A DNA stretch of 46,097 nt from Planctomycetota bacterium (GCA_045863855.1 BTVV01000044.1:1-46097); one strand, 5' to 3'; numbered from the stretch's first letter, positions 1,406-24,947 are shown. Notes: generated by a model from the letters alone, not told the origin. A program made the numbers and translations.

Positions 1406-1511
1406 GGATTTTGAATGGCAACAGACTCATAGATCTGTTGACGTTCCAAAGGCAACAGACTTTGGATCTGGCGACACCCCCACCCGCCCCACTTCTAAGG
1501 CCCGGAGCGAA

Positions 1512-1527
1512 GCGCAGACGTCTGCGC
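1512..1527. repeat. Palindrome GCGCAGACGTCTGCGC, copy 1
   Basis: Perfect 16-bp palindrome recurring at 7902, 8151, 15896, as a 12-bp core at 15533 and degenerate at 16352. Confidence 0.85.
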
Positions 1528-1558
1528 AAGCGGCGACCAGGAGGGCGCCGGCGTGCGA

Positions 1559-2095
1559 TTAGAGCTTGGAGCGGATCGCGGCGGCTTGGGCTTCGTAGCG
1601 CGCTTGGCGTTCCCGCTCGCCGTGCATTTCGTGGTGCAGCGCGAAGGAATCGAGGGCGTCGGCTTCGCCGGCAGAGCCGGCGCCGGCGTAGCGCTTGGCC
1701 AGGTCGTGAGCCATTCGGAGGTAGATACCGGCTTCGTGCTTTTCGTTCAGGCTGGTATGCAGGAACGCAGCCAGGCGGAGCACATGGAAGGGCCCCCGCC
1801 AGTCCCAGCCCCAGCGCTCAAGCCAAAGCAGTATCCGGATTGCGCGCCTGTAGCAGTCCAGCGCTTCGCGCCATTCTCGGCGCATGAGGTGACAAACCCC
1901 CACTGAGCCCAGCGCCACCGAAAGCGACGCAGCCCACCGAGTCTGCTGTTCGAGGCCGCGCGGGTGCAGCGCCCAAGCCTGGCGCAAGGCATCGCGGGAG
2001 GTTTCAAACGCGGGCCCCACGGCGCCGCGTTCGGCATGGCCGATCGCCTGAGCGACAAGGCCGTTTATCTCGCCGGCCTTACTCAGTGTGCGCAT
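1559..2095 (-). CDS. TPR-like helical repeat protein
   Basis: ALGSVGVCHLMRREWREALDCYRRAIRI resembles a TPR consensus; start overlaps the TMP stop region; start codon uncertain. Confidence 0.55.
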   Translation of the reverse strand: MRTLSKAGEINGLVAQAIGHAERGAVGPAFETSRDALRQAWALHPRGLEQQTRWAASLSVALGSVGVCHLMRREWREALDCYRRAIRILLWLERWGWDWRGPFHVLRLAAFLHTSLNEKHEAGIYLRMAHDLAKRYAGAGSAGEADALDSFALHHEMHGERERQARYEAQAAAIRSKL

Positions 2096-3425
2096 TGACG
2101 TTGCGCGCCCCGATCGCCGCCGTATCGGATTCAAGCGCGGCCGCGTGCCGTTCGTAAGCGTCGTTCAATCTCGAAAGGGTAGTGATCAGCTTGTAAAGCG
2201 CGACCGGACCGAAGCCACTCTCGACTACATTCTGTGCATAGTAGGCTCCGACTCCCTTCTCACCGGCCTCCTTAGCCTCTTCGCCGGCTACATCCATTGT
2301 CGCGGCCCACGCAAGGCTGGCCTGCTCTCCGGCTTCGCCTGCCTGCTCGCCAAACCCCTGCTGCGCCAAATCCGCGCGCACCGCGGCGGCCCGGCGCCGT
2401 AAATGTTCCTGGATCTGCGGATTCGTCATAGCTTCAGACAGTTCGCCCTCAAACAGGTTTCCACTCTGAGCCGCCATCAATTCGCGCGCGCGGCGCTGGG
2501 GATCCGAGCCCATAAGCACATCGAACGCGCCGCTTTGCCCCCCAAGAATCTCCTGGCGCACTCCTTTGTTGCCGCGCAACATGGCATAGCGCTCCGCCGG
2601 CGACGCCGCGTAAAAGGCATTTTCGGCCAAGTCCTTCTCCGAGAGACGCTGCCCACGCTTCGCCGCAACAGGATCCCGCTGTTCGGTGAGCTTCTGCTGC
2701 AAGCTGTTCAGCACTTCAGGACCGACGCGGGTTTCCAGCGACCCCAAGGCCAGGCCCAACGCCTCTTCGGTCGTCATGGCCCCCGACTGAGTCAAAAGGC
2801 CGATGCTCTTAAATCCGCTTTCGTCCAGCTTCCCGCCGTATTTTCCCGAGGCCTTCATAACGGCCATCGCCAAGTCCGACATATCGTCCATAGACTTATC
2901 GGGGCTCAGCTTCGCAATTTCACCCATGACCGCGCCAGCTTCGCCCGGATTCATAAAGGCGCCCGTAAAGCGCGCGGCCTGTTCGGCAATGCGGAGCTGC
3001 TGCTCAGTGGAAGCGCTGGGCGTGCGGCCGGCCACAGCGTCAAAAGCCGCTTTGCGATCCGTCATGTTCGCCAGCGGAGCGTTAAAGCTCTTGATTCCCG
3101 ACTGGATCGCCGGCGTGTCCTTCAGGCGCTGCGCAGAAGCAATAGACTTGAGCAGCTCTTCATTGAACTGCCGAGCGTCTTTGCCTATTTGGTTAAGGTA
3201 CTTGGCAACGTCCATCAGGCCGTTAACGAGCGTTGCAGGATCGATCTTAAAGAGATTCACGAACGCGCCAGATACCCCGCGCGCGTACTTCTCAACTTCG
3301 GTAAGGTTCTGTTTGTTGCGCTTGGCGCCGGCGTCCACCTTGCTTTGAGCATCAACGAGCTTTAGGTATGCGTTCACCGCGCCCTGGGTCTCCGCGTCCA
3401 CTCTGATAATCACGTCACCGGCCAT
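2079..3425 (-). CDS. Short tape-measure-like protein (448 aa)
   Basis: N-terminal VIIRVDAETQGAVNAY typical of TMPs; Ala/Gly-rich helical body; directly after a frameshifting chaperone gene; GGAGG RBS. Confidence 0.75.
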   Translation of the reverse strand: MAGDVIIRVDAETQGAVNAYLKLVDAQSKVDAGAKRNKQNLTEVEKYARGVSGAFVNLFKIDPATLVNGLMDVAKYLNQIGKDARQFNEELLKSIASAQRLKDTPAIQSGIKSFNAPLANMTDRKAAFDAVAGRTPSASTEQQLRIAEQAARFTGAFMNPGEAGAVMGEIAKLSPDKSMDDMSDLAMAVMKASGKYGGKLDESGFKSIGLLTQSGAMTTEEALGLALGSLETRVGPEVLNSLQQKLTEQRDPVAAKRGQRLSEKDLAENAFYAASPAERYAMLRGNKGVRQEILGGQSGAFDVLMGSDPQRRARELMAAQSGNLFEGELSEAMTNPQIQEHLRRRAAAVRADLAQQGFGEQAGEAGEQASLAWAATMDVAGEEAKEAGEKGVGAYYAQNVVESGFGPVALYKLITTLSRLNDAYERHAAALESDTAAIGARNVNAHTE

Positions 3426-5471: not shown

Positions 5472-6752
5472 TTAGTAGGTCGTGCTCGGTACGCTCTGCA
5501 CTACGCGGTTGTAGTCGATCGCCGCAACTTCGAAGGCCCAGGCCGCGCGCAGGCTGAAGAGTTCGCGGCGGTTCAGGAACGCGATACTTTGCTCGCTGAA
5601 CATGGAAACGATTTCAAGTTCCAACGAACGGTGCTGCACGAATTGCGCCGCGAAGTTGCCGGCGTACCAAGCGCCGGTGCTGATCTCGTCCAAGTAGGTG
5701 CTGCTCAGCAAGCGCGGCCGGCGATCGGCCGGCTGGTAGGCGTAAAGCTGCTCCAGGAGCTGCGCGGCGAGCGAGGCCTGCGAGGCGGGCACCAGCGCAA
5801 GCCGGCGGAACGGATCGGCGACCAGGCGCCGGCCTTCGGAATCGAGCATGCCGTCGAGCTGCGCGAACGCGGCGTTCATGCTGTTCGCGTCGGTAAGGGC
5901 GTTGTTGGTGAGGCGCGTCCCAAGTGGCGCGCGCGAACCGGGCGCGCCGTCGGTGGCGTTGTAAAGCGGCGTCGGCACGCCGCCCGGCCTGTACACGTAG
6001 TGCGGGCCGGCATCGCTGGTCTTGGAGCCGTAGCGATCGGTTACGCGGTCCAGGATTTGGCGCTCTTCATGGTGCCGCACGTAGCGGCCCAGCGCGCGCG
6101 CCTTCGCGGCCAAGGGCGCGGCATTGGCCTTCTGTCCGGCTTCCTCCAGTTCTTCGGCTCCAATCGAAAGCGTACGGCCATCCGCAACGGCATGCGGAAT
6201 GCCGATCGTTTCTTCATCGAATTTCGCCGGCGGAAACGGCTCGCCTTCGCGTTCGCGGCGCGCCGTCGTTTCGAGCACGCGCAGGGGTACGAAGCTGACG
6301 CGTTTCTCGCCCGTGCGATCGTCGGAAATCACCTCGGCGTTGCCGATCGGCGTAACCAACTCTTGCCCGATGCAATCGAAGCCGGCCTCGTTGTAGCCGT
6401 CGAGGAACGCCGTGCGCGCGACTTCGCCAAGCAACAGACTGGCGGGGTCCACAAGAGCGTCGCGAGCGTCGGCGCCGTCCGCCAGCCGCACGGAAGCACC
6501 CACCGCGCCCTTATCGCTGGCTTCCAGAAGCGCGTGCACGTTGACCTGCTCGGGCCGGATGCGGCCTGCGCGAATCTCGGGCAGAATGCGCGCGAGCGCC
6601 GCGGGGGCGTCGGCCACCAGGGCCGCGCGCAGATCGCCGGCCGTCAGCGCGCCGCGCACGTCTGCCGTCATGCGCGGCGCATCGAGCGGACCGGATTCGT
6701 GGGGCGCGCCGATCGCGATACGGCGGGGATTCTCGACTGGAATGGGAGGCAT
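5472..6752 (-). CDS. Major capsid protein, Mu gpT-like / HK97 fold
   Basis: Segments EGEPFP.AKFDE, GRTLSI..E, A.ARALG....HEERQIL, NNALTD, LVP, LLSS.YL....AWYAGNF and the C-terminal ..AAIDY.RVV resemble Mu-type head subunits. Confidence 0.8.
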   Translation of the reverse strand: MPPIPVENPRRIAIGAPHESGPLDAPRMTADVRGALTAGDLRAALVADAPAALARILPEIRAGRIRPEQVNVHALLEASDKGAVGASVRLADGADARDALVDPASLLLGEVARTAFLDGYNEAGFDCIGQELVTPIGNAEVISDDRTGEKRVSFVPLRVLETTARREREGEPFPPAKFDEETIGIPHAVADGRTLSIGAEELEEAGQKANAAPLAAKARALGRYVRHHEERQILDRVTDRYGSKTSDAGPHYVYRPGGVPTPLYNATDGAPGSRAPLGTRLTNNALTDANSMNAAFAQLDGMLDSEGRRLVADPFRRLALVPASQASLAAQLLEQLYAYQPADRRPRLLSSTYLDEISTGAWYAGNFAAQFVQHRSLELEIVSMFSEQSIAFLNRRELFSLRAAWAFEVAAIDYNRVVQSVPSTTY

Positions 6753-7901: not shown

Positions 7902-7917
7902 GCGCAGACGTCTGCGC
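7902..7917. repeat. Palindrome GCGCAGACGTCTGCGC, copy 2
   Basis: Exact copy upstream of the zinc-ribbon gene. Confidence 0.85.
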
Positions 7918-8127: not shown

Positions 8128-9120
8128 CTACGGCGAACAATCGCCGCCCGGCGCAGACGTCTGCGCCAAGTCGGGCGCTTCGACTGGAGACACACCGGCT
8201 TCGGCCGGCGGCGGTGACCCATCGAAATCAGTAAGGCGGAGGCCTTGGCACTGGCTTTTGAGTTCCTCGTGCAGTGCGTGAATGTCTTCTTGCGCCTGGC
8301 CGCGCAAGAAGTCGGCGAGCAGGCCGACGGCGGCGGGGTTGGTGCGGGCGAGGTCCACGTTGAATTCGGCGCGGATCTGCTTGACCACGGCTTGAGCTCG
8401 CGCGGTGGCTCGTTCGTCGATGAGGTTCGCGAAGACGATGACGAGTGCGCGGAGCATTTCGAGAACCTTGTCTGCACGGATTGCGCCGGCGAGGCGGGCC
8501 TCGCGTTCGCGTTGGACGCCGAGGGCGTTCGCGCCGGCGACGATCGCGCGGATCTTCGCTTCACTCAGCGCAACCAGGAGTTCCTTGTCGCGCAGGATCC
8601 GGCTTAGTAATTCGTGCGGATCCTTTGGGAGGGCCTCGTCGCCAAAGGGGTTGGTCGGCTCGATGCCGGCGACGGCGTCCTCGGCCCAACCCACGGGCGG
8701 GCGCATTTTCTCCGAGCCTTTCGCGGCGTGCTTGCGGATGTGCTCGAAGGCGACGGCGGGCTGGACCTGCCAGGCGCCGGCGATCTTCCTCGCGGGGAGC
8801 GCGGGCGTGCAGCGCTTCTGGCCGGCGACCCAGTAGCGGAGCCACCGTTCGGTAATACCCAACTCGCCGGCAACTTCGGCGAGGGAGGCCCAGCGCAAGG
8901 CGCGCGGGTCGAAGCCCGGGCGTGCGACCAGGGCGCCGGTTGAGTCAGGCGCTTCGGGGGGCGTGTACTTTTCGCGGATCTTGCGCACCGTGACTAGGTC
9001 TCCGTGTCCGACAGACTTCCCCTCGTCGAGGCGCACTTGAATGTTCTTCAAGATGCGCAGCTCGATCGCGTCGGCAAACGCGACGATCCGCGCGCCGTCC
9101 GCTTCACCAACCCCTTGCAT
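8128..9120 (-). CDS. Terminase small subunit-like protein (lambda Nu1-type architecture)
   Basis: HTH ASLAEVAGELGITERWLRYW..G..P followed by a coiled-coil EAKIRA...REREARLAGAIRADKV segment; lies downstream of a cos-like site. Confidence 0.65.
   Translation of the reverse strand: MQGVGEADGARIVAFADAIELRILKNIQVRLDEGKSVGHGDLVTVRKIREKYTPPEAPDSTGALVARPGFDPRALRWASLAEVAGELGITERWLRYWVAGQKRCTPALPARKIAGAWQVQPAVAFEHIRKHAAKGSEKMRPPVGWAEDAVAGIEPTNPFGDEALPKDPHELLSRILRDKELLVALSEAKIRAIVAGANALGVQREREARLAGAIRADKVLEMLRALVIVFANLIDERATARAQAVVKQIRAEFNVDLARTNPAAVGLLADFLRGQAQEDIHALHEELKSQCQGLRLTDFDGSPPPAEAGVSPVEAPDLAQTSAPGGDCSP
8151..8166. repeat. Palindrome GCGCAGACGTCTGCGC, copy 3
   Basis: Exact copy (extends to 18 bp) inside the 3' end of the terS-like gene. 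Confidence 0.85.
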
Positions 9121-11410: not shown

Positions 11411-12130
11411 ATGCGCGGACAACCCTTTAAACCCATTAAGCGGCCCGGGAGAAAAGACTATCAGGTCCAGTTCTTCCACCCCTTAGAAGGCAAGTTCGTG
11501 ACCCGCGGATTGGGCACACAGGATTCCCGTGAAGCCCAGCTCGCTGCCGCAGAACTTGAAAAAATCTGCCTGAACAAACATCTCCACAGCTTGAACAATT
11601 CAATCCTGGCCGCTTTTGACTTTAGAGCCGTAAGAGCCTTCTTCGGGCGATCGGCAGACATGAACTTCTCCACCTTTGCCGAGGCCATGGCGTCTATCGT
11701 AGTGCTTTCCGCCTATAGTATTCGAGTGCAGCAATCATCTTTTTTGGTTATTGAGCAGCAAATTTCTTATAAGAATCCATCAGTCGCAAAGGACATTAAG
11801 GATGAATTTCTACTTCATCTTAGGACCGCATTATCATCTATCGGAATTATGGAGCAGTGGGGTGTTTCAAAGATCTTGGAGCAGCAGGCTCCATCACTCG
11901 CCGAGACTGCATGGACGGCACTTGCTAAGGCCGAGCAATGCTGGCGCGCGCTGCAAGAGCAAGTTGTTGTTCCAGATCGTATAGCTTATTTGTGGGATGA
12001 ATTTCAAAAGAATATGAATAGCTGTCTCGTCTGCGTAGCGGACACTTTAATGATTTCCTTCATAAGTAAATTGCATGAGCAAAAAAAGAAGCCTCGCAAT
12101 ACCAAGAAATCCCCCCGCCGAGCGCCCTGA
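11411..12130 (+). CDS. Protein with an integrase-like N-terminal (arm-binding-type) domain fused to an unknown low-GC helical domain
   Basis: YQVQFFHPLEGKFVTRGLGTQD resembles YVVRFKHPLTKRTVRAVLGERD of the element's integrase; no catalytic domain. Confidence 0.65.
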   Translation: MRGQPFKPIKRPGRKDYQVQFFHPLEGKFVTRGLGTQDSREAQLAAAELEKICLNKHLHSLNNSILAAFDFRAVRAFFGRSADMNFSTFAEAMASIVVLSAYSIRVQQSSFLVIEQQISYKNPSVAKDIKDEFLLHLRTALSSIGIMEQWGVSKILEQQAPSLAETAWTALAKAEQCWRALQEQVVVPDRIAYLWDEFQKNMNSCLVCVADTLMISFISKLHEQKKKPRNTKKSPRRAP

Positions 12131-12256: not shown

Positions 12257-12880
12257 CTATACGTCGCGCGTCCAGCCGTACGCTCGGGCGCGTTCCTGCT
12301 CCAAGAGGTACTTCAACCCGCGTTGCGCGCTTTCCAGCCCTTTGTGGACGTAGCCGGCGCGCGACAGGCCGCGCCCCACGACCAGGCGCAACACGCCGGC
12401 GCGCCGCTCCAGCTCCCGGACCTGCCAGTAGTAGGGATGCTCAGCCACATGCCAGGCGTCGTGATCCTTGCGGGCCTTCACGTGCCCCCACAGCGGCTCC
12501 TGGAAGGGGTCGCCCCATTGCCTTTGGGCGGGGCCCAAGAGGGTATGGCACCAGGCCCGGTACGCCGCCTCGGCCAGCGGCACCGCGCCCCACAGCCGCA
12601 CGATCGTGACGGGCTTGGGCGTCTCGGCGAAGTACGCCAGCGCCCCGACGGCCGCGCGTTCGTAGAGTTCCTGGACCAGGTCCTCCAGGGGCAGGAACTG
12701 GAGCCGCTGCTTTTCGGCCTCCCACGCCGCCTCGGTCGCGCGGATCCGCGCCATGCGCTCGGCGTGCCGGCGGTACTGCTCAGCCGACCAGCCTCCGCCC
12801 TTGGAACGCGGCCGGGCCTGCTGCTCGCGCAGTTCGCGCAGCTCGGGGTGCAGCCCCTCCATCGGTTCGGGCGTGCTCAT
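12257..12880 (-). CDS. Hypothetical protein (207 aa)
   Basis: ATG at 12880 coupled (TGATG) to the upstream ORF; GC3-rich coding pattern. Confidence 0.6.
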   Translation of the reverse strand: MSTPEPMEGLHPELRELREQQARPRSKGGGWSAEQYRRHAERMARIRATEAAWEAEKQRLQFLPLEDLVQELYERAAVGALAYFAETPKPVTIVRLWGAVPLAEAAYRAWCHTLLGPAQRQWGDPFQEPLWGHVKARKDHDAWHVAEHPYYWQVRELERRAGVLRLVVGRGLSRAGYVHKGLESAQRGLKYLLEQERARAYGWTRDV

Positions 12881-13413
12881 CAGGCGAGCCCCCCTTCCCG
12901 GTCGAAGAGGTCCTCGGGGCTGGCCGGCCCGCCGTCCACCGGGATCCACCGCACGCGGCAGAGGCAACAGACGCTCCCCCGTTCGGGGTGCGACGTCCAG
13001 TTGTGCTCCCGGCTGGCCGAGGCCTTGCAGTAGAACGCGCTGTCGAGCGGGATCTCGTAGAACTCCGAGCCTCGGAGCCCGCCCGGCACGGCGTCGGGCG
13101 GCGCCGGCGGCTTGGCCGGGGTGCGCTCCGGTTCGGGCGGCGTGTTGTTCTTGCGCAGCTTCTCCCGGATCCCCGGGTGCAGCTTCTCCAGATAGGGGAA
13201 CCGGTCGAGCAGGTCCTCCCACTTGCGCAGCTCGCGCTGCGCGGCCTCCCAGTCGCGCGGAACGTCCAACGGCGAGCGTGCGGGCTCGATCGCCGTGCAG
13301 AAGCGTTGCGACCAGGCCGGGCTGGGGCGCCGGCGGCGTGAAAGGTCTTTGCGGCTTTGCGTATCTTGGGGATCGTCGGGCAGGTCCTGCGGTGCGTCGG
13401 TTGGGCGGTCCAT
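12880..13413 (-). CDS. Hypothetical protein with a Cys/His cluster
   Basis: AAAGGGG RBS; FYC...H.W...VCCLC. Confidence 0.55.
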   Translation of the reverse strand: MDRPTDAPQDLPDDPQDTQSRKDLSRRRRPSPAWSQRFCTAIEPARSPLDVPRDWEAAQRELRKWEDLLDRFPYLEKLHPGIREKLRKNNTPPEPERTPAKPPAPPDAVPGGLRGSEFYEIPLDSAFYCKASASREHNWTSHPERGSVCCLCRVRWIPVDGGPASPEDLFDREGGLA

Positions 13414-13614
13414 CGAGTGCCCCTTTCTCTGTCGAAAGGGCAGCACAGCGCCGATACCATCGGCGGGCGCGCTGCCAGTCTGTCCTGGTGGCACGTCAAG
13501 GGGCGTTGGTCGGGTTCCAGCCGGCCAGCGCCCCGCTTCTTTACGGCCGCGCGGTTCCAGCGCGCGTACGGCGGTTCATGCGATAGGCAGCCTCCTTTCC
13601 CGCTTCCCGCGGCC

Positions 13615-13971
13615 TCAAGCCACCCAGCCCAACGGCACGCCGGCCGGCGCCGCCGCGGGCGGTTCAACGCCCACGTCGCCGAACAGCTCGCCCTGAGTAC
13701 CGGGCAGGGCGTAGCGCTTCAAGAGGTTTCCGGCGGCGTCGTACAGGTTCCCGTAGCGATCGCCGGCGGGGGCCTCGTCGAGCTGCCGGGCCAGCTCAGC
13801 GGCGTGCTCGGCCAGCCAGGCCAGCACGGCGCGCGGATCGTCGCCGGCGCTGAGGGTCAGGGTCAGCTCGGTATGCCGGGCGTGCCCGTCGTTCTTGTGG
13901 AAGCCGACGCGCAGGAGCTTGCCGTAGGAGAGCGGCTCGGCGGCGACGGTGACGCGGCATTCGTGGGGCAT
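13615..13971 (-). CDS. Hypothetical protein, first gene downstream of the C4/CI-like RNA
   Basis: 118-aa ORF with GGAG RBS. Confidence 0.6.
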   Translation of the reverse strand: MPHECRVTVAAEPLSYGKLLRVGFHKNDGHARHTELTLTLSAGDDPRAVLAWLAEHAAELARQLDEAPAGDRYGNLYDAAGNLLKRYALPGTQGELFGDVGVEPPAAAPAGVPLGWVA

Positions 13972-13992
13972 GGGGCGGCTCCGAAGAAAAGA

Positions 13993-14071
13993 CTTCCCTG
14001 GGGCGGGTTAGTGAGCGTCGGTCTGGCGACCGTCGCCGCGGGCCTTTCGGCTTGCGCACCCGTCAGGGAAG
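13993..14071 (-). ncRNA. Putative C4/CI-like antisense RNA (79-nt cloverleaf)
   Basis: Closing stem CUUCCCUG/CAGGGAAG, hairpins GCC-GAAA-GGC and CGGUC-GCCA-GACCG, unpaired UCACUA complementary to upstream GGCUAGUGA (14107-14115). Confidence 0.65.
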
Positions 14072-14190
14072 AACTCGAATCCGGTTTGCGTTCCGGCGCT
14101 GCGCGGTCACTAGCCACGACGCCAAGGGCACGACCTTACCACGGCGACCGCCTGAAAAATAGGGTCTTTTTGCTGGTTTTTGCGGCCCGT

Positions 14191-14223
14191 CCTGTAAGGT
14201 ATTTTTCCGCATAGGGTTACAGG
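14191..14223. promoter_or_regulatory. Inverted repeat CCTGTAA-N19-TTACAGG in a divergent promoter region
   Basis: Seen directly; the right half (ATAGGGTTAC) resembles the arm-site motif. Confidence 0.4.
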
Positions 14224-14239
14224 TTGGGAGGACGATTGC

Positions 14240-14911
14240 ATGAGCGTGGGAGAGACGGCTGTTGTTGCTATTGCGGTGAAGAAATTCCTTGGACTCATTG
14301 TTCCCAAGGAGATCGCAGACGAAGCAATCGGCATGGGCGTCGACGTAATGCGCTCGTACCGCACCAAGCTTGGGGTGGTCTTAGTGAAAGACGTGAGCGA
14401 CTATTTTGCAAAGAAAGGCATTGATCCACGGCAAGTGCCCGTGCGCTTCTTCGCGCCCTACCTCGAGCACGCCACGCTTCACGATGAACCCGACTTGCAC
14501 GAACGGTGGGTTGCGCTGCTTCGTAACGCCGCAGATCCCAATTTTAAGGAAGATGTGCGACCGGATTTTCCGTTCGTGCTCAGCCAACTTTCGGCAAAGG
14601 AGGTGAGCCTCTTGGACCATCTCCATTTCCTCACGGTTGAAGCCGCTCAAGTTGCGGCAGAACAGTGGGGCGAATGCGGCATCGGTATCGAAGAGGTATT
14701 GTCCCATTGTCGCCCTGGGACTCGCGATCTCGGTGTGCTCTACATGGATAACCTGATGCGGCTTGGCCTTGCGGCGCCAGGCGGGCACTCGTTTAAGAAC
14801 CTTGTTACGGGAATGCAAAAGGTGGGGAACATCGGACGTAGAACGCTTTCCCTAACCAGTTACGGCGCGGCTTTCGTGCGAGCATGCCACACGCCCAAGG
14901 ACGCGAGCTGA
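14240..14911 (+). CDS. Abi-alpha / DUF4393-like protein
   Basis: P..FFAPYLE.A.L.DEPDL.ERW..LL.NA, F..VLSQLS..E..LL, DNL.RLGL, LTSYG.AFV.AC. Confidence 0.75.
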   Translation: MSVGETAVVAIAVKKFLGLIVPKEIADEAIGMGVDVMRSYRTKLGVVLVKDVSDYFAKKGIDPRQVPVRFFAPYLEHATLHDEPDLHERWVALLRNAADPNFKEDVRPDFPFVLSQLSAKEVSLLDHLHFLTVEAAQVAAEQWGECGIGIEEVLSHCRPGTRDLGVLYMDNLMRLGLAAPGGHSFKNLVTGMQKVGNIGRRTLSLTSYGAAFVRACHTPKDAS

Positions 14912-14918
14912 GGCGCCT

Positions 14919-15524
14919 ATGCCGTCCTGCGTTCACGGTCAATCGGCAGGCCTGGGGCAGTTCGGGGCCTGCGGCCAGGTCTTGGCCAGCGCGTCCGTTT
15001 ACCACGTCTCGCTTCAGGCGCTCCCCATCGGCATGGTGCTGGACGGTTCTACCAGCCGACACGGCAGCTTCTTCCTCGAGCCTGTGCCGCCACAATTCGC
15101 CGGCGACGCCAAGTTCCTGCGCTATCGACGGGTGGAGCATGCCCTCGAAGCGGTTCGAACCGCGCACTTCCAAGAGCGGCCGTCACGCCAGGCTTGCCGG
15201 TTCGCGTTCACTTGCCCGAGCTGCGCTCGGACCTTTCGCGACAAGAGCCGGAAGGCCGGCCATGTGTACGAGGTGGAACCTCTGAACGCGGCTGCGGCGT
15301 GCTTCGTGGGCGACATGGAGCTACGCAACTGCTCCTTTGCCTTGACGGGCCTGAGCGCCGCGGAACGGCTCGCGCGCGGCCTGGAAGCGGACGAAGGCGT
15401 AGCGGTTTCCATCCTTGCGGTTTCGTATTGGAGCGGTGGCGCGGCGCGCGACCTGGGCGGATCCCTGCCCGTGGCCGAAGTGTTGGTCGCCGGCGCATTG
15501 ACGGTGAGCCGTGCAATAGACTGA
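14919..15524 (+). CDS. DUF2441-like / ADP-ribosyltransferase-fold protein (Arr-like)
   Basis: YH.S, E..LE.VR..HF.ERPSR..C.FAF, VYEVE, YW.G, EVLV.G. Confidence 0.55.
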   Translation: MPSCVHGQSAGLGQFGACGQVLASASVYHVSLQALPIGMVLDGSTSRHGSFFLEPVPPQFAGDAKFLRYRRVEHALEAVRTAHFQERPSRQACRFAFTCPSCARTFRDKSRKAGHVYEVEPLNAAAACFVGDMELRNCSFALTGLSAAERLARGLEADEGVAVSILAVSYWSGGAARDLGGSLPVAEVLVAGALTVSRAID

Positions 15525-15532
15525 AGGCCCCT

Positions 15533-15544
15533 GCAGACGTCTGC
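15533..15544. repeat. Palindrome core GCAGACGTCTGC, copy 4
   Basis: Starts 9 nt after the stop of the ART-like gene. Confidence 0.8.
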
Positions 15545-15591
15545 GCCGTGGCACGGCGCGGCCTGCAGCCGATTAACAAAGGAGGTCAAGC

Positions 15592-15879
15592 ATGCAGTCG
15601 AAAATCGAAAGGGCCATTCGGAAGAAACTCAAGGTAGAGTTTCAGTACGGGAGCGCCAAGCGCGAATGCAATCCTCACGTGTTGGGCATGCAGAATAAAA
15701 ACCTCATGGTCCTATGCTGGCAGACCGGAGGCAGAAGTACCAGCGGTTCGCTCCCCGACTGGCGGCTATTCAAGCTATCGGAAATCAGTAGGCTCAAGGT
15801 TCTCGAAGACAAGTTCACGCCAACCCGCTCAGGCGGCCGCACCTACAAGTGGGAAAGCGTACTCGCGAGCGTGACTTGA
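15592..15879 (+). CDS. Stand-alone WYL-domain protein
   Basis: AIRKK..VEFQY....R..NPH.LG.....VLCWQ.......WRLFKLSEI..L.VL...F; AAGGAGG RBS. Confidence 0.8.
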   Translation: MQSKIERAIRKKLKVEFQYGSAKRECNPHVLGMQNKNLMVLCWQTGGRSTSGSLPDWRLFKLSEISRLKVLEDKFTPTRSGGRTYKWESVLASVT

Positions 15880-15895: not shown

Positions 15896-15911
15896 GCGCA
15901 GACGTCTGCGC
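15896..15911. repeat. Palindrome GCGCAGACGTCTGCGC, copy 5
   Basis: Exact; overlaps the TAG of the 15911-16255 gene. Confidence 0.85.
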
Positions 15912-16351: not shown

Positions 16352-16367
16352 GCTCAGACGGCTGCGC
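16352..16367. repeat. Degenerate palindrome copy 6 (GCTCAGACGGCTGCGC, 14/16)
   Basis: Overlaps the toxin stop codon in the same way as copy 5. Confidence 0.6.
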
Positions 16368-16693
16368 TACGAGTCCATCCACTTCTCGAACTCAATCGCG
16401 AGCTGGCCTTCCAGCCTGCCCTTCCACTTCATAAAATCCGCTTGGCCCACGTCCTGAAGTTCTAAAATCGCGAAGCTGTCGCGTGCAAGCCCCGTCACTC
16501 TAAAGTTGGGGTGACTCATCTCAATGGGGAAGTCCCAGCTTGTACGCAGATCCGAAGCCGAAAGCGGCACCACCTTGTAATGGGGCGGGTTCGCCTCAAC
16601 CACTACCCAAGGACGGGGATCGGTGCAGTTTCGGAAGGGGATGTTGCAGAGCCAGACATCAAGATACGCGGGAAGCCTCGGGGTACGGCTCAT
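16367..16693 (-). CDS. PemK/MazF-like toxin
   Basis: DVWL.NIPF.....PRPWVVV, VVPLS, TGL.RDS. Confidence 0.7.
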   Translation of the reverse strand: MSRTPRLPAYLDVWLCNIPFRNCTDPRPWVVVEANPPHYKVVPLSASDLRTSWDFPIEMSHPNFRVTGLARDSFAILELQDVGQADFMKWKGRLEGQLAIEFEKWMDS

Positions 16694-16946
16694 AAGGGCA
16701 ATCCATATGCTTGCGGTCTTCTTCGGTAAAGACCGGCCGGCCCTTCCAGGTCTTACTGGCCTTCACGATCTGCTTCGCCAGCGCGCCCGGCAACCTGGCG
16801 GCGGCCGCTTGCGCGGACGCCTTGTCCGGATAAATTCCCGCTTGCTCCCCGCGGTGCAACACCACGTATTCCCACGGGTGCCGGACGAACAGGGCGAGCA
16901 CCATGTCGCGGTAAGCCTGCGTGTTGCGTTCCAGTTCGCTATTCAT
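16659..16946 (-). CDS. DUF5678-like protein, probable cognate antitoxin
   Basis: AY..M...L...HP.EYVVLH.GE..GIY.D...A; overlaps the toxin start. Confidence 0.55.
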   Translation of the reverse strand: MNSELERNTQAYRDMVLALFVRHPWEYVVLHRGEQAGIYPDKASAQAAAARLPGALAKQIVKASKTWKGRPVFTEEDRKHMDCPYEPYPEASRVS

Positions 16947-17052: not shown

Positions 17053-18360
17053 TCACCGCAGCGCCGCCGGCGTCCCGTCCACCTCGTGCGGAAGGATCGC
17101 CGCGTAGTGCTCGCGGACCATGTTCGGGCTGTTCCCCAGGTACGACGCCACCTGCTCCACACTCAGCCCCGCCCGCAATAGCAGGCTCCCGCACGTGCGC
17201 CGGCCGATCCGGCAATCGGGCGTAAAACCCAGCTTCAACCCCGCCGCCGCGAAGGCTTCGCGCAACGCCTCATTGAAGCGCCGGTCGAAGTTGAGCGGGT
17301 TCTTCCACGGCTTCACCCCGTCGGCGTGCTGGCGCTCGAGGCTCGGGAAAGCGAAGTCCGTCTCCTGCATGCGCCGGCGCAGGACCTTGCGCACGCTCGC
17401 CGGCACGTTCAACGCCGACCGCCGCGGGCCGGTCTTCAAGCCAAGGTGCTCGAACGCCGCCAGCGTCAGCCGTCCGAAGTCGTTGCTGAAGTTCTCGCGG
17501 CGTAAGGTCAGCAGCTCGTGCGGCCGCAAGCCCAGCCCCACCTGCACGCGGAAGCAATCGGCGAAGTATTCGGGCAGGTGCTGCGCGACGGCCGCGGCTT
17601 GGGTCTTCGTCAACCAGCGGATTCCGCCGCGCGCCGCACGCAGCTCGATGATCTTGGCCGAAGGCAGCAGGCCGCGGTCCAGCTTGACGTGGGAATCGTC
17701 GAGGAAGCGCAGGATGTAACCGCGAAGCTGCTGCCGGCGCCCCGCCGAAACCTTCAGGTCATGCAGCCAGGCGTGGATCTCGCGTTCGCGGCCGACCAGG
17801 TCGTCGACCAGGGCGAGCGGCCGGAAGGCCTTCACGAAGAGCGCCAGATCGTTGCAGACGTTCTTGCGGTGCGCGGGGCTGCCGCTGCGGAAATGCTCTT
17901 TCCACTCCCGAAACGCATCCTGCAACGTCGGGCTCGGGCCGCTGCGCACCTTCGCGCCCTTCCAGTGCTCCGCAATCTTGGTCAGGTCCTGGACCTTCGC
18001 ACGGAGCTGCGCGTTCTCGAGCTTCAAGGCTTCCAGCTCGGCGAGCAAACGGGCCTCGCGCGCCGGATTGCCCGCGCGCCGCTGGCCGGGTGCGCGCACG
18101 GCGCCCTTGCCGCTCACGGCCGCGCCCGGCTGCCCCCACGCATCGCGGACCACTTCGCCGGCATCGTCCGGCACGGCCGACCAGAGCGCCGGATCCATGA
18201 AGATCCGATTCAGCCACTCCAAGTTGCGCCCCGCCGCCGCGCCTTCGTCGCGCTCTCCCAGCACCGCCCGCACCGTGCGCTTGGTCAGCGGGTGCTTGAA
18301 GCGCACGACGTACTGCGCGCCTTCCAAGAGCATCCGGAGCGGCTTGCGTGTTCGACCCAT
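17053..18360 (-). CDS. int: Tyrosine recombinase / phage integrase
   Basis: GLRPHELL.L (R), LKT (K), RIGRRT (HxxR variant), LGNS and HY (catalytic Tyr); adjacent to the tRNA att site. Confidence 0.92.
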   Translation of the reverse strand: MGRTRKPLRMLLEGAQYVVRFKHPLTKRTVRAVLGERDEGAAAGRNLEWLNRIFMDPALWSAVPDDAGEVVRDAWGQPGAAVSGKGAVRAPGQRRAGNPAREARLLAELEALKLENAQLRAKVQDLTKIAEHWKGAKVRSGPSPTLQDAFREWKEHFRSGSPAHRKNVCNDLALFVKAFRPLALVDDLVGREREIHAWLHDLKVSAGRRQQLRGYILRFLDDSHVKLDRGLLPSAKIIELRAARGGIRWLTKTQAAAVAQHLPEYFADCFRVQVGLGLRPHELLTLRRENFSNDFGRLTLAAFEHLGLKTGPRRSALNVPASVRKVLRRRMQETDFAFPSLERQHADGVKPWKNPLNFDRRFNEALREAFAAAGLKLGFTPDCRIGRRTCGSLLLRAGLSVEQVASYLGNSPNMVREHYAAILPHEVDGTPAALR

Positions 18361-18456
18361 GCGAGACACCCCCCGCGTCCCGATCGCGCGCCAGAGGCCC
18401 CGGAAACGCGCGCGCGGGCTGTCCTCGGCGAGCGCCTCCCAAGTCCACGAACGGAG

Positions 18457-18480
18457 CGATAGGTTACGCGAATAGGTTAC
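18457..18480 (+). repeat. Putative integrase arm-type site (tandem TAGGTTAC)
   Basis: CGATAGGTTACGCGAATAGGTTAC; partner at 1382-1405. Confidence 0.75.
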
Positions 18481-18564
18481 AGAAAGCGCCAAACCTGCGC
18501 AAGCCGCGAACCCAAGCGGCCTCGTCATGATCCCATAAAGCCTTTCGGCTACTTGGTTTTAAGA

Positions 18565-18650
18565 TGGTGGGCAGGGAGGGATTTGAACCCCCGTAGACTT
18601 TCGTCGACAGATTTACAGTCTGTTGCCTTTGACCGCTCGGCCACCTGCCC
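18565..18650 (-). tRNA. tRNA-Tyr (GTA)
   Basis: GGGCAGG acceptor stem, ACAGA-CTGTAAA-TCTGT anticodon arm, long variable arm, GGTTCAAATCC T-loop, encoded CCA. Confidence 0.97.
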
Positions 18651-21143: not shown

Positions 21144-21863
21144 TTACCATTCGCGCTCGCAGGCTCGCGCGGCAGCAGCCAAGAGCGTGCCGATCTCGCG
21201 GACGCGGGTGTCGTTGAGGGCTCCGAGAGTTCCACCGACGGCGAGGGCGCCGACGACAACGCCGTCTCGGCGCAGCGGGGCGGCGAGGCGCTGGCGGTCG
21301 CCTTGGGGTCCGACGCAGTAGCCGTGCGCGGCGAGGCGGGCGCATTCGGCGCGGTAACGCGCCCAGGTCGCTCCGGGCGGCGCGGGCTTGCGCGAGATGG
21401 CGCGGCGCCACTGCGCGCCGCTGAGACAGAAAATCCCCCACGGCGCTTCGAAAAGCCCTTTGGTCACGTGCCCGGGTTCCTGGAGCACGAGGGAATCCGG
21501 ATGAAGCACGCGCTCGAGGCAGACGGAGCGCTTGCCGTCCCAACGGATCAGGAGGACGGTGTTGCGCACGTCGTCGCGGAGGCGTTCGAGGTACGGCCGG
21601 GCGATGCGGCGGAGCCGGCTGTCGAGGTCTTCGCCGCCCTGGAGCGCGGCGAGTTCGGGGCCGGGGCGGTAGCGCCCGGTCTCGGGGTCTTTGGCCAGCC
21701 AGCGCAGATCGGTGAGAGCGCCCAGGAGGCGCGCGACGGTGGCCGACGGGAGTTTCATGCGCCGGCCGATCTCGTTGAAGCCCAAGCCGCCGGGGCTTGC
21801 GGCGATTAGGCGTAGGAGGCTCAGGCCGCGGTCGAGCGAGCGGGGCGATTCGTGGGTACTCAC
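21144..21863 (-). CDS. IclR family transcriptional regulator
   Basis: SLDRGLSLL, HTH LP.ATVARLL..L, ARPYLERLRD. Confidence 0.9.
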   Translation of the reverse strand: MSTHESPRSLDRGLSLLRLIAASPGGLGFNEIGRRMKLPSATVARLLGALTDLRWLAKDPETGRYRPGPELAALQGGEDLDSRLRRIARPYLERLRDDVRNTVLLIRWDGKRSVCLERVLHPDSLVLQEPGHVTKGLFEAPWGIFCLSGAQWRRAISRKPAPPGATWARYRAECARLAAHGYCVGPQGDRQRLAAPLRRDGVVVGALAVGGTLGALNDTRVREIGTLLAAAARACEREW

Positions 21864-21969
21864 ACTAATGTTACTAACCTACAATATTGACGCCGTCCAG
21901 TCCCAAGCCGGGTATGATTCTGCATGGCCGCGGCCCGTACGCGCCGCCGAACGTCCAGGGAGCCTCGCG

Positions 21970-23313
21970 ATGGCCGATCCGCGCCGCCCGAACCTGCTAT
22001 TTATCTTTGCCGACCAGCTCCAGGCGTTCTGCCTGGGCCACATGGGCGACACGGCCGCTCGTACGCCGAACCTGGACGCGCTGGCCGCCGATGGCGTGGT
22101 CTTCCGCAACGCGTACAGCGATTCGCCGGTCTGCACGCCGTACCGGGGCTGTCTGATGACCGGGCGCTACCCGACGCAGACGGGGGTGCGCGGGAACGAG
22201 GACGGCCCGCGGGCGGACGAGCGCTGCCTGGCCGAGCGGATCGGCCGGCGCGGCCTGACAACGAGCTACGTCGGCAAGTGGCACCTCTACGCCACAGGCA
22301 ACGTGCCGGTCCTGCCGCAGCAGCGCTGCGGCTTTCAGCGCTTTATCGGGTATCAGGCGTACAACGATTTCCTGAACGACGTCACCTTTTTCGACGAGGA
22401 AGGGCGCGCGCGGACGTTCGAGCGGCACCGCACGGACGCGACGACGGACCTGGCGATCGAGCGGCTGCGGGAAATCCGCGACCGGCGCTGGCTGCAGATG
22501 GTCAGCTACCAGAACCCGCATTATCCGCTGCAGCCTTCGCCCGAATTCGAAGCGCTGTTCGCGAACACGGCGATCCCGAGGCGGGCCAACGTGCGCGAGC
22601 CCGAGCGCGTCTTCACGCCGACGTTCTCCCCGTTCAGCCCGCGGCCGATGGAGCGCGATCCGAATTACCACCGCTACGGAAAGAACCTCGACGCGTTCCT
22701 GCGCTGCTATTACGCGATGGTCGCGCAGCTCGACTGGCACGTCGGGCGACTGATCGCGGAACTGAAGCGGATGGGGCTGTACGACGAGACTGCGATCGTA
22801 TTCACCAGCGATCACGGTGAGATGGCGGGTAGCCACGGGTTGATGAACAAAGGCGCGGCGTGGGAGGAGTCTTCGCGCGTGCCGCTGATTGTGCGGCTGC
22901 CCGACGGACTGCGCGGACACACGGTGGAGACACCGGTCTCTGCGGGCGTTGACCTGTACGCGACGCTGCTGGAGTTGGCCGGCTGCGGCGCGGATCCGCG
23001 CGCGGCCGGGAAGAGCATCGCGGCGCTGGCACGCGATCCGGAAACACGCACGCACCGGCCGATCTTTGCGGAGTACGGGGATTGGGTCTTCGTGCGCGAC
23101 GGCGACCGGAAGCTCGTGGCGGCGCGCGAAGATCTGCGGCCACGCCAGTTCTTCGATCTGCGCAGCGATCCGTACGAGTTGAACGATCTGGTGCTCGCGC
23201 CCGAACTCGCAGGCGAGCGCGAGCGGCTGTCGGGGCTGTTGGCGGATTGGCGGCGCAGCATGGGGGTGGAAGTGGGCGGTGGATTGCAGCTAGCGAAAGC
23301 GGTTGAACTTTAA
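21970..23313 (+). CDS. Sulfatase (formylglycine-dependent)
   Basis: PNLLFIFADQ, CTPYR (CxPxR), MTGRY, GKWH, FTSDHG. Confidence 0.95.
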   Translation: MADPRRPNLLFIFADQLQAFCLGHMGDTAARTPNLDALAADGVVFRNAYSDSPVCTPYRGCLMTGRYPTQTGVRGNEDGPRADERCLAERIGRRGLTTSYVGKWHLYATGNVPVLPQQRCGFQRFIGYQAYNDFLNDVTFFDEEGRARTFERHRTDATTDLAIERLREIRDRRWLQMVSYQNPHYPLQPSPEFEALFANTAIPRRANVREPERVFTPTFSPFSPRPMERDPNYHRYGKNLDAFLRCYYAMVAQLDWHVGRLIAELKRMGLYDETAIVFTSDHGEMAGSHGLMNKGAAWEESSRVPLIVRLPDGLRGHTVETPVSAGVDLYATLLELAGCGADPRAAGKSIAALARDPETRTHRPIFAEYGDWVFVRDGDRKLVAAREDLRPRQFFDLRSDPYELNDLVLAPELAGERERLSGLLADWRRSMGVEVGGGLQLAKAVEL

Positions 23314-23534
23314 CGGCAAAGGGCAAACGGCAAGAACCAAGTATACGTCAAACTTCAAATCAATAAGCCTTTCCCACGATAAGCGACACGGGAAGTGGCG
23401 ATCGCTCGCACTTGGTCTCCTTACAGTACCTAACAAATTCTAACGCCCTCGCTTGCAATCCCATGGCGCATAGGTCTGAATAGCGGATTCGCATCCGTGC
23501 GCAGGTTCCGTTTGGTCTAACGAAAGGGCCCTCC

Positions 23535-24947
23535 ATGTCTTCGAAGGTCGTCGGTCGCAGTTCCGGTTGGGTGGCGGCTCCTGAGCCTTACACGAAAAAC
23601 AAGGGCACGTGCGGGCACAAGCGAATCTGCTTCGTGGGCGCATCTTACAAGTTCGTCCACAAGGTCCTGCGCGACATGCTGCTGGTGGGCGGTTTTCAGG
23701 ATTGCGAGTTGGTGGTCCACGACATCGATCCGGATGCGATGAACCTGGTGGCCGATCTTTTGGAGAAGATGGCGCGCCAGAAGAAGACGCGGATCCGGGT
23801 GCTGCGAACGCTGGACCGCACCGAAGCGCTGAAGGGCTGCGACGCGGTGGTGCTGAGCATCACTATCGGCGGGGACGAATCGGATGCGCGCTCGGCGGAG
23901 GTAGCGCTGAAGTACGGCATCCCCACTGGGATTGGGGACACGCTGGGGCCGGCGGCGCTGGCGCGAAACCTGCGCACGATTCCGTTCTGCGACCGGCTGA
24001 TCCGCGAGATGGAAGACTTGTGCCCTCGCGCGGCGATGCTGAATTTCACCAATCCGATGTCGGCGCTGACGGGCGCAATGGCGCGTCGGCGCAGCATTCC
24101 GGTGTACGGGCTGTGCCATTCGGCCGACGAGTTGTTCCGGTACTTCGCCAAGGTCTTCAAGTGCCGCAAGCAGGACGTCGAACTGGAGATCGGCGGGGTC
24201 AATCACCAGGCTTTCGTGACGCGGCTGTGGATCAAGGGCAAGGAACGCACGTCCGAGATCCTCGCCGAGACGGCGCGCTCGGACGCGCTGCTGGAGGACG
24301 GCCTGAACGCGCACCGCGAGACGGTGCGCTTGCAGCAGGACGTCTGCCGCGTGCTGGGCGCGTGGCCGAGCACAGGCGAGGATCACCTGGCGGAGTTCTA
24401 CCCGTTCTGGCTCAACAAGCGCCGGATGCAGCAGTTCGCGTTCCCGCAGCGGCACGAATTGAAACCCGGCCGGCCGACGCACGGGAAACGCAAGTGCCCG
24501 GAGATCATCAAGTATTGGGCGCACGGACCCGAGCCGGTGGGCGACTTGCATCTGCTGACCACCGAACACGCGCACGAGCTTTTGTGGGCGCACTTCACGG
24601 GCGAACCGTACACGCGCGTGCTGAATATTCTAAACGAGGGCGAGTACATCCGTGGGCTCTCGAAGAACGCGTGCGTCGAGGTGCTGGCGACGGTGCGCAA
24701 AGGCAAAGTGACCGCAAAGCCGGTAACGCTCCCGACGGCGGTGCATTCGCTGGTCGAGCGCTGGACGGCGATCCACGAACTGTCGATCCGCGCGGCGCTG
24801 AGTTGCGACCGGCAGCTCGCGCTGCAAGCGCTGATGCTCGACCCGCACGTGCACGACTTCTACGACATGGAGCCGATGCTCGAGGATTTCATCACTTACC
24901 TGGAGCCTTGGCTGCCGAAGAAGTGGCAGAAAGCCGCTAAAGGCTGA
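23535..24947 (+). CDS. Family 4 glycoside hydrolase (NAD+-dependent)
   Basis: GDTLGP..LARNLRTIP, NFTNP, GLCH, GVNHQ, H.AEF. Confidence 0.9.
   Translation: MSSKVVGRSSGWVAAPEPYTKNKGTCGHKRICFVGASYKFVHKVLRDMLLVGGFQDCELVVHDIDPDAMNLVADLLEKMARQKKTRIRVLRTLDRTEALKGCDAVVLSITIGGDESDARSAEVALKYGIPTGIGDTLGPAALARNLRTIPFCDRLIREMEDLCPRAAMLNFTNPMSALTGAMARRRSIPVYGLCHSADELFRYFAKVFKCRKQDVELEIGGVNHQAFVTRLWIKGKERTSEILAETARSDALLEDGLNAHRETVRLQQDVCRVLGAWPSTGEDHLAEFYPFWLNKRRMQQFAFPQRHELKPGRPTHGKRKCPEIIKYWAHGPEPVGDLHLLTTEHAHELLWAHFTGEPYTRVLNILNEGEYIRGLSKNACVEVLATVRKGKVTAKPVTLPTAVHSLVERWTAIHELSIRAALSCDRQLALQALMLDPHVHDFYDMEPMLEDFITYLEPWLPKKWQKAAKG

Follow-up and report, generated by a model that had tools for sequence, protein, structure and literature searches.

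A probable C4/CI-class small RNA with a covarying leader box in a prophage-like element of Planctomycetota

Small RNAs of the C4/CI type are the textbook example of phage immunity provided by an RNA in place of a repressor protein. In P4, termination between the promoter and cI requires only CI RNA and seqA, and this would set a precedent for an upstream site being enough for control; the P4 alpha protein is of the D5-type primase-helicase/Prim-Pol helicase type. In the portion of PMC4825925 that deals with P4, CI RNA is described as arising by processing of its own operon's leader and as causing premature termination via seqA (upstream) and seqC (downstream); its authors liken the STnc1160/IsrK pair of the Salmonella prophage Gifsy-1 to P4 seqA/CI. 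C4 of P1 and P7 is described, in the sections of PMC5320573 devoted to it, as an RNase P-processed RNA of ~77 nt whose loops set specificity, with 4 nt separating P1 from P7, the b' loop occluding the ribosome-binding site and a' conferring specificity. A statement in PMC8546580 has c4 RNA repressing Ant synthesis, and a table in PMC2864571 reports C4 from Proteobacteria and phages and lists c4-a1b1 with no Rfam accession. The c4-2 family is introduced as a likely distant homologue of an earlier-described RNA in the part of Weinberg et al. 2017 that presents it (PMC5737381).

The stretch of DNA analyzed here (the window, 46,097 nt) carries a 17.3-kb prophage-like insert in a tRNA-Tyr gene, bounded by a perfect 55-bp direct repeat. 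At 14071-13993 on its minus strand lies a cloverleaf RNA which, with a probability that we put at about 60%, is a C4/CI-class small RNA related to c4-2 that sits in the leader of the element's leftward operon and regulates that operon. The original prediction had recognized the layout of P4 CI and P1 C4 at this place. That observation and the core of its interpretation hold. We recovered the upstream half of a seqA/CI arrangement, in the order promoter-like region, box, RNA and operon; no seqC or a2b2 target was detected, and only a single recognition segment was found.

Read on the minus strand from 14071 to 13993, the 79-nt RNA is CUUCCCUG-A-CGGGU-GCG-CAA-GCC-GAAA-GGC-C-CGC-GGCG-A-CGGUC-GCCA-GACCG-A-CGCU-CACUA-ACCCG-CCC-CAGGGAAG. 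An 8-bp closing stem, CUUCCCUG/CAGGGAAG, pairs 14071-14064 with 14000-13993 and is followed by the 5-bp stem 2 (CGGGU/ACCCG), by hairpin 1 (GCC-GAAA-GGC) with its GAAA tetraloop, and by hairpin 2 (CGGUC-GCCA-GACCG within GCG/CGC) with its GCCA loop. The recognition strand, UCACUA, is unpaired at RNA positions 58-63, between hairpin 2 and stem 2. The unconstrained minimum free energy (MFE) structure of 13993-14071 reproduced the predicted fold identically, with all of its stems and hairpins and UCACUA at the minus-strand coordinates claimed for them. Its energy is -41.7 kcal/mol, against -26.7 +/- 3.3 for shuffled sequences (z -4.60), and none of 200 shuffles was equally stable. A U-rich tail 3' of the closing stem was seen by eye in only about three of the nine loci described below.

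An Infernal scan of 13800-14300 against Rfam with E-value reporting gave c4-2 (RF02944, clan CL00128) as its sole match. The alignment spans all of the model (positions 1-79 of 79), lies at minus-strand positions 13991-14071 and scores 29.8 bits (E 2.9e-4 in 501 nt), under the gathering score of 41; at gathering thresholds, tRNA-Tyr was the sole Rfam match in the whole window. At overlapping matches cmscan retains the best family per clan, and c4-2 is the member of CL00128 that was reported (C4 itself is RF01695). We take the likeness to c4-2 to be real yet sub-threshold because a c4-2 search of the whole genome found the same place and 14 control genomes gave no match. A second genomic copy, on contig C46, has the same fold and scored 30.6 bits. 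Across the ten loci scanned, c4-2 was reported at E<=5 in only four (29.8 bits in the window, 30.6, 23.8 and 23.8), the other six had no match at that level, and none reached 41 bits. The architecture of c4-2 is present here (two nested stems around a GNRA-capped hairpin and a further hairpin, with unpaired bases preceding the 3' strands), and a fold of this type was recovered independently in nine loci. Rfam scans of the window and the ten loci found no IsrK or other clan match upstream of the RNA.

These loci came from searches of increasing breadth. BLAST of the region against 61 relatives returned only a 70%-identical stretch, on contig C46 of the source genome. A covariance model built from two copies (R1) matched 5 of 20 genomes of the order, and with one built from six sequences (R2) there were matches in 7 of the 62 class genomes, every one of them in a single GTDB family, f1: the source genome and 6 of 16 other family members, with 0 of 45 in other families. 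On an even sample of the phylum, R2 matched 3 of 151 genomes (the source genome and two members of f1) and 0 of 148 outside that family; the large R2 searches used stricter filters and many genomes are incomplete, so that absence here means not found among those searched. Eight homologues were found in all, giving nine loci, three of them in the source genome (contigs C44, C46 and C22).

All nine loci fold individually into the same shape. Alignment with MAFFT and folding with RNAalifold predicted 23 pairs, of which 17 are compensatory, meaning that at least one sequence is altered on both sides with the pair kept, in an alignment that was not model-fitted. In a model-fitted alignment of six sequences, 92% of 162 cells are paired and 17 of 27 pairs are altered on both sides; slid registers gave at most five such pairs, and 0 of 500 shuffles reached any of five measures, a count that is no probability since this alignment leans to structure and its sequences are related. 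Covariation, named in the original prediction as a check, is therefore strong in the stems, and it extends to UCACUA and its upstream box in all nine loci. It is the eight homologous loci that lift both the fold and the upstream match above chance.

Other searches added no locus. An exact-pattern scan with the hairpin-1 core GCGNAAGCCGAAAGGCNCGC gave 6 viral and 106 genome loci, and nearly all of these 112 are chance or coding, including a conserved Fimbriimonadales coding stretch that was counted as such. The only c4-like match of that scan, L008 (IMGVR_UViG_3300034100_000018, 21452-24471), holds at 1487-1562 (+) a c4-2-like cloverleaf of 23.8 bits, with the hairpin-1 sequence of the window RNA and a 7-nt loop in hairpin 2; it was dropped as a further locus, its upstream complements lying within chance. 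An integrase-guided hunt for more elements, by two single-protein scans and one alignment scan of viral_contigs, yielded no locus. DNA contigs of four sequencing runs contained near-identical pieces of the element in other samples, with joints whose sides, shorter than 30 letters, were too short to interpret; none of this bears on the RNA. As a loose check on the assignment to Planctomycetota, PSD1 (PF07587) has two strong matches in the source genome and none in the 14 control genomes.

The sequence GGCUAGUGA lies at 14115-14107, 35 nt before the first base of the RNA and on the same transcript, and is complementary at 8 of 9 positions to UCACUAACC, as had been claimed. Within it, CTAGTGA (14107-14113) forms the 7-nt apical loop CUAGUGA (14113-14107) of a leader hairpin at 14095-14123 on the minus strand, identified from folds and covariation. 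Local folds of the nine loci place the box in or across an apical loop, of 7 nt in C46, C22, G002, G007 and G014 and of 4-9 nt in the others, and the consensus leader hairpin closes its 7-nt loop with a 5-bp stem, four of whose five pairs are compensatory. A box in an apical loop makes the contact a loop-to-strand 'kissing' helix.

In 9/9 loci the six unpaired bases after hairpin 2 complement the leader apical loop 32-50 nt upstream, and no two loci have the same box sequence. The box/strand pairs of the first six loci are UAGUGA/UCACUA, UGUGAA/UUCACA, GGUAGGC/GCCUACC, CUUGAA/UUCAAG, UUGAACCC/GGGUUCAA and GGCUCGAAU/AUUCGAGCC. Three later-found loci served as a test of the idea and all fit: CUCAUC/GAUGAG, UGGUAAUC/GAUUACCA and CCUGAA/UUCAGG. 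When leader loop positions 2-7 are set in a fixed register against six bases at RNA positions 57-66, 52 of 54 cells are standard pairs, with 18 pair types over the six columns. Reassigning partners among the loci gave a mean of 29.5 and a maximum of 46 pairs, and none of 5000 permutations reached 52. The longest perfect complement in -70..-20 measures 6-9 nt in all nine cognate pairs; 10 of 72 non-cognate pairs have a perfect complement of at least 6 nt there.

The window and C46 have identical box flanks (TCGTGGCT and ACCGCGC) and differ at four of six box positions, with the RNA changed to match. Each of the three copies in the source genome pairs at 6/6 positions with its own leader and at 1-5 of 6 with the leaders of the others. 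Because the sequence differs in all nine loci, including three in one genome, the loop/strand helix behaves as a specificity code. No second covarying recognition segment was found among the nine loci. The loop of hairpin 2 is conserved (GCCA, GCCC or GCAC), and inspection revealed no partner that changes with it; a candidate second pair, between the GCCA loop and a UGGC beside the box, fits the four GCCA loci, fails the four GCCC loci and was rejected.

Upstream of the leader hairpin lies a putative promoter-like region (14133-14162, minus), consisting of CTATTTTTC at 14162-14154 and then TGG-TAAGGT at 14141-14133, an extended -10-like motif. The CTATTTTTC block is exact in four of nine loci (window, C46, C22 and G004) and has T-rich variants in G002 and G014, and by eye the alignment shows TA-rich -10-like hexamers at similar spacing after it. 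A simple scan of the minus strand over 13800-14400 called no sigma-70-type promoter and no terminator. Several loci also have conserved blocks 90-140 nt upstream of the RNA, GCGGAAAAAT within an inverted repeat and GAAACAAA, found at 14165-14225 (-) in the window and in the upstream regions of L118, L129 and L122; these may be regulator or UP-type promoter sites.

The operon behind the RNA begins with an ORF of 118 aa (13615-13971, minus; GC3 0.91), taken from the ORF list and GC3 profile, which has GGAG 7 nt before an ATG that lies 21 nt after the last base of the RNA. A search of 5.8 billion clusters found no relatives of this ORF; PHROG and PADLOC gave no match and Pfam nothing significant, with one weak match below the cut-off. 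The next coding stretch, 12257-13494 (minus), comprises the ORFs 12880-13494 and 12257-13222 in different frames, again with the GC3 profile as a guide, and has no Pfam or PADLOC match. Two of its segments, 13599-13354 and 13295-12890, have their homologue in the gene that follows the RNA in the C22 copy, the third in the genome. By blastn, the second gene of the operon is 77% identical to L130 over 253 nt and 69% over 413 nt. Homology between 12880-13667 (-) of the window and L130:10605-11818 is split over two frames with ~490 nt of the middle missing, and this split could be a deletion/frameshift or an assembly error. The C22 homologue of the second gene (341 aa) has no relatives in the 5.8-billion-cluster search and no significant Pfam, PHROG or PADLOC match.

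Further along, an ORF of 239 aa at 11411-12130 (+), with no Pfam or PADLOC match, runs against the gene row in a low-GC stretch where the minus-strand GC3 signal collapses; it looks like an inserted foreign gene. Because this opposing ORF breaks the minus-strand row, the RNA-led operon is secure only for 13971-12257, and the transcript may stop at ~12257, short of the capsid genes. The first ORFs behind the RNA are mutually unrelated among the loci. As they are unrelated and without relatives, the promoter-hairpin-RNA unit appears as a conserved cassette placed before variable early genes.

From this arrangement we propose the following mechanism. The transcript would start at the promoter-like region at ~14162-14133, and the short leader hairpin would form first, presenting CUAGUGA in its apical loop as the target box. 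The cloverleaf would form ~35 nt later, with UCACUA as its recognition element, and, to judge from known relatives, would be cut out or terminated as a stable RNA of ~80 nt. This RNA would then pair in trans with the leader hairpin whenever the same promoter makes a new transcript, and the pairing would lower expression of the genes behind the RNA, as P4 CI does with seqA. The operon would stay shut in the lysogen, and likewise in any superinfecting element that has this specificity. Repression might run through premature termination or processing, or through lost translation of the first ORF, whose start lies 21 nt past the RNA.

The covariation fits trans action and a purely intramolecular contact alike, and the most serious competitor, which we consider unlikely on balance, is a leader that works in cis only: hairpin loop and cloverleaf strand would kiss within one transcript to set leader folding, processing or first-ORF translation, with no free trans RNA and no immunity function. 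Such a contact would be kinetically favored, as the partners lie 32-50 nt apart on one transcript in 9/9 loci, and no second, downstream or distant target was found. The first listed ORF also starts at most 25 nt from the RNA end in three of nine loci (window, G007 and C22), with a TTG there in G002, and with an ORF this close leader folding could affect its ribosome binding. A leader confined to cis sits poorly with the rate at which box and partner have diverged, much faster than their flanks in the comparison of the window with C46 (four of six positions), and with the three codes in one genome, a pattern expected under selection against trans cross-talk; the closest known relatives, P1 C4 and P4 CI, also act in trans. 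On sequence grounds, then, the matched fast divergence of addresses and the presence of three of them in one genome favor trans action, and fall short of proof.

Where in the transcript the RNA would act bears on a second competitor, a translational repressor of the P1 type whose true target is a downstream ribosome-binding site, that of an icd/ant-like gene, and for which the box upstream would, like a1/b1, serve only as a decoy or for autoregulation. Searches for a downstream target of the seqC or a2/b2 kind showed no gain of cognate over non-cognate loops in +1..+60, +1..+200 or +200..+400, and cognate matches of at least 8 nt were not enriched over non-cognate ones within 10 kb downstream. 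For the purine-rich SD-like runs behind the RNA in some loci, the 3' strand of stem 2, being rich in pyrimidines, is a possible partner, and P1/P7 offer a precedent in the division of labor between b' at the ribosome-binding site and a' for specificity, as set out in the C4 sections of PMC5320573. We nevertheless regard this arrangement as improbable here, given that cognate loops did no better than non-cognate ones just downstream, that a single segment covaries while the conserved hairpin-2 loop has no partner found for it, and that no domain of the Ant, KilA or Bro type was seen in the element ORFs scanned with Pfam (scans for repressor and Ant domains covered 26 element ORFs, plus 16 ORFs of the window).

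The one distant candidate, GCTAGTGAGC at 7470-7461 on the minus strand, is an 8-nt perfect match to GCUCACUA. The suspicion that this match is due to chance was borne out by counts, by alignment and by the cognate test: CTAGTGA occurs twice in the window where 1.15 occurrences are expected, and 33 of 100 shuffles give at least two. The site and the leader have CCCTTGG in common just before both boxes, and the site was considered as a homologue of the leader; this was rejected on local alignment of the leader with the element, 30 of 60 shuffles scoring at least as high. With no downstream target detected, the gene-touching half of the P4/P1 scheme is either missing here or different.

That there is no functional RNA at all, and that we are looking at a chance GC-rich fold, a degenerate tRNA or a coding stretch, is hardly credible: the region is 70% G+C, long ORFs span it (13863-14117, and 13357-14214 on the other strand) and the Rfam score is under threshold, yet no shuffle of 200 folds as well, the stems are compensatory at 17 of 23 pairs over nine loci, ARAGORN and Rfam call a tRNA only at 18565-18650 (tRNA-Tyr), substitutions preserve pairs rather than codons, and the 81-nt unit recurs behind different genes.

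The element around the proposed C4/CI-class RNA has the features of an integrated phage-like unit. Its left att repeat (55 bp, 1271-1325) is perfectly repeated at 18564-18618, the right att copy, which is the 3' part of the tRNA-Tyr gene at 18565-18650 (the whole spanning 18564-18650, minus; ARAGORN, and Rfam at 63.2 bits). Close within either end of the element, a 27-nt repeat (1382-1408 and 18457-18483) carries tandem AGGTTAC units and likely provides arm-type integrase sites. A tyrosine integrase (17053-18528; phrog_1, 6e-19) is encoded on the minus strand, the same as the RNA, and is 39% identical to the integrase upstream of the G005 RNA; an integrase is found upstream of the RNA on the same strand in five of nine loci (window, C46, G004, G005 and G007). 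The minus-strand ORF row behind the RNA matches almost nothing in Pfam or PHROGs. The ESM Atlas identified the major capsid protein in it, 7.2 kb behind the RNA (5472-6752, minus), with a feature score of 0.97, 193 features in common with Phage_capsid_4 clusters and TM values of 0.69/0.75; Pfam and PHROGs gave no match to this ORF. A weaker ESM Atlas lead points to a tape-measure protein at 2079-3425.

Behind the RNA of related loci we found a DnaB-like helicase, HTH_17 proteins and a small terminase (C46), a protease-capsid fusion (G007), a D5-type primase-helicase with D5_N/DUF5906/Pox_D5 matches (C22) and a Prim-Pol/AAA_25 protein (G002). On the other side of the RNA in the window, and facing away from it, the plus-strand block 14240-15879 encodes Abi_alpha (14240-14911; PF14337 at 3.5e-20, PADLOC PDC-S47), a phrog_5663 protein and a 95-aa WYL-domain fragment flanked by copies of a palindrome; the block is probably anti-phage defense cargo of the element. 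Two small overlapping ORFs at 16367-16946 (-) may form a toxin-antitoxin pair: one of 95 aa, which shares 55% identity with an ORF (L117:6609-7013) next to tRNA-Arg on contig C46, itself a weak match to DUF1902, and one of 108 aa with a weak MazF/PemK-like match (E 0.014).

The palindrome, GCGCAGACGTCTGCGC, is perfect over 16 bp, and the 6.9-Mb genome contains it just five times. The 17.3-kb element accounts for four of these copies, at 1512-1527, 7902-7917, 8151-8166 and 15896-15911, with a near-copy at 15531-15546. In the C22 element, 254 nt separate the fifth copy (G000:C22:42790-42805) from the c4-like RNA downstream of it; this element shares with the window the gene behind the RNA. The palindrome may serve an element-encoded DNA-binding protein as operator, or it may form small hairpins where genes end, and its near-confinement to the element suggests control at the protein level as well. 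This tempers the original prediction that the element shows no classical CI-type repressor: no Pfam HTH or CI-type domain was seen in the scanned ORFs, which agrees with the claim, but most of these ORFs match nothing and the palindrome hints at a regulator.

If the main reading is right, the C4/CI design extends to small prophage-like elements from a bacterial family that has been little studied, in RNAs that current Rfam thresholds miss. The covariance model R2 would annotate such RNAs and so mark the regulatory start of phage genomes that are otherwise unannotatable. The recognition helix comes in nine natural 'compensatory mutants', of which one genome holds three, and these amount to a ready set of orthogonal RNA/target pairs; the locus also offers a clean test of whether upstream-leader pairing alone controls an operon. 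A more specific idea, which we put forward only tentatively, is that these RNAs form a distinct, lineage-restricted branch of the C4 clan, a 'kissing lock' that reads only the 7-nt loop of its own leader, without a ribosome-binding-site or downstream target, and whose addresses have diversified. Were this so, a 6-9-nt address diversity would let several prophages or satellites coexist in one PVC-type genome without cross-talk, the decision would be taken co-transcriptionally and wholly upstream of the regulated genes, and this would be the first RNA-based phage immunity described in Planctomycetota.

Compared with c4-2, the RNA shares its length class (79 model positions), its phage-type surroundings and its order of parts: closing stem, bulge, second stem, GAAA hairpin 1, hairpin 2, unpaired strand and 3' strands. 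Apart from the sub-threshold score, a difference lies in hairpin 2, which in the model is a short stem with a 9-nt loop and in the window is long with a 4-nt loop. P1/P7 C4 (RF01695) is likewise a cloverleaf-like RNA of ~77-80 nt with a tetraloop hairpin and a complementary copy upstream on its transcript, and there too a few changed bases give a new specificity, according to the C4 sections of PMC5320573. The immI layout of P1/P7 runs a1 b1, c4, a2 b2, icd, ant. Our locus departs from it in having one covarying segment where P1/P7 have two (a' and b'), in placing that segment in a multiloop strand and not in hairpin loops, and in showing neither a target overlapping a ribosome-binding site nor an antirepressor gene.

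IsrK/STnc1160 resembles the locus in that an upstream leader element complements a processed downstream RNA from one promoter, as the Gifsy-1 passages of PMC4825925 describe it. IsrK itself differs as a terminated 77-nt sRNA that activates orf45-anrP translation, and the leader hairpin here is short and has no terminator tail.

P4 runs from the PLE promoter through seqA, the CI RNA (seqB) and seqC to the alpha (replication) operon. Here, no seqC-like downstream site was detected in +1..+400 or in 10 kb, the upstream target is the apical loop of a hairpin without a terminator-like U tail, and the host is a PVC-type bacterium where that of P4 is an enterobacterium. In both, the RNA lies in an untranslated leader, a single internal segment complements an upstream site, and ORFs follow on the same strand; both are small integrase-bearing elements in a tRNA gene, and in related loci the RNA stands ahead of replication genes, as in P4. 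Together these comparisons place the RNA as a divergent, lineage-restricted member of the C4/CI class that falls under current Rfam thresholds, and not as a new kind of system.
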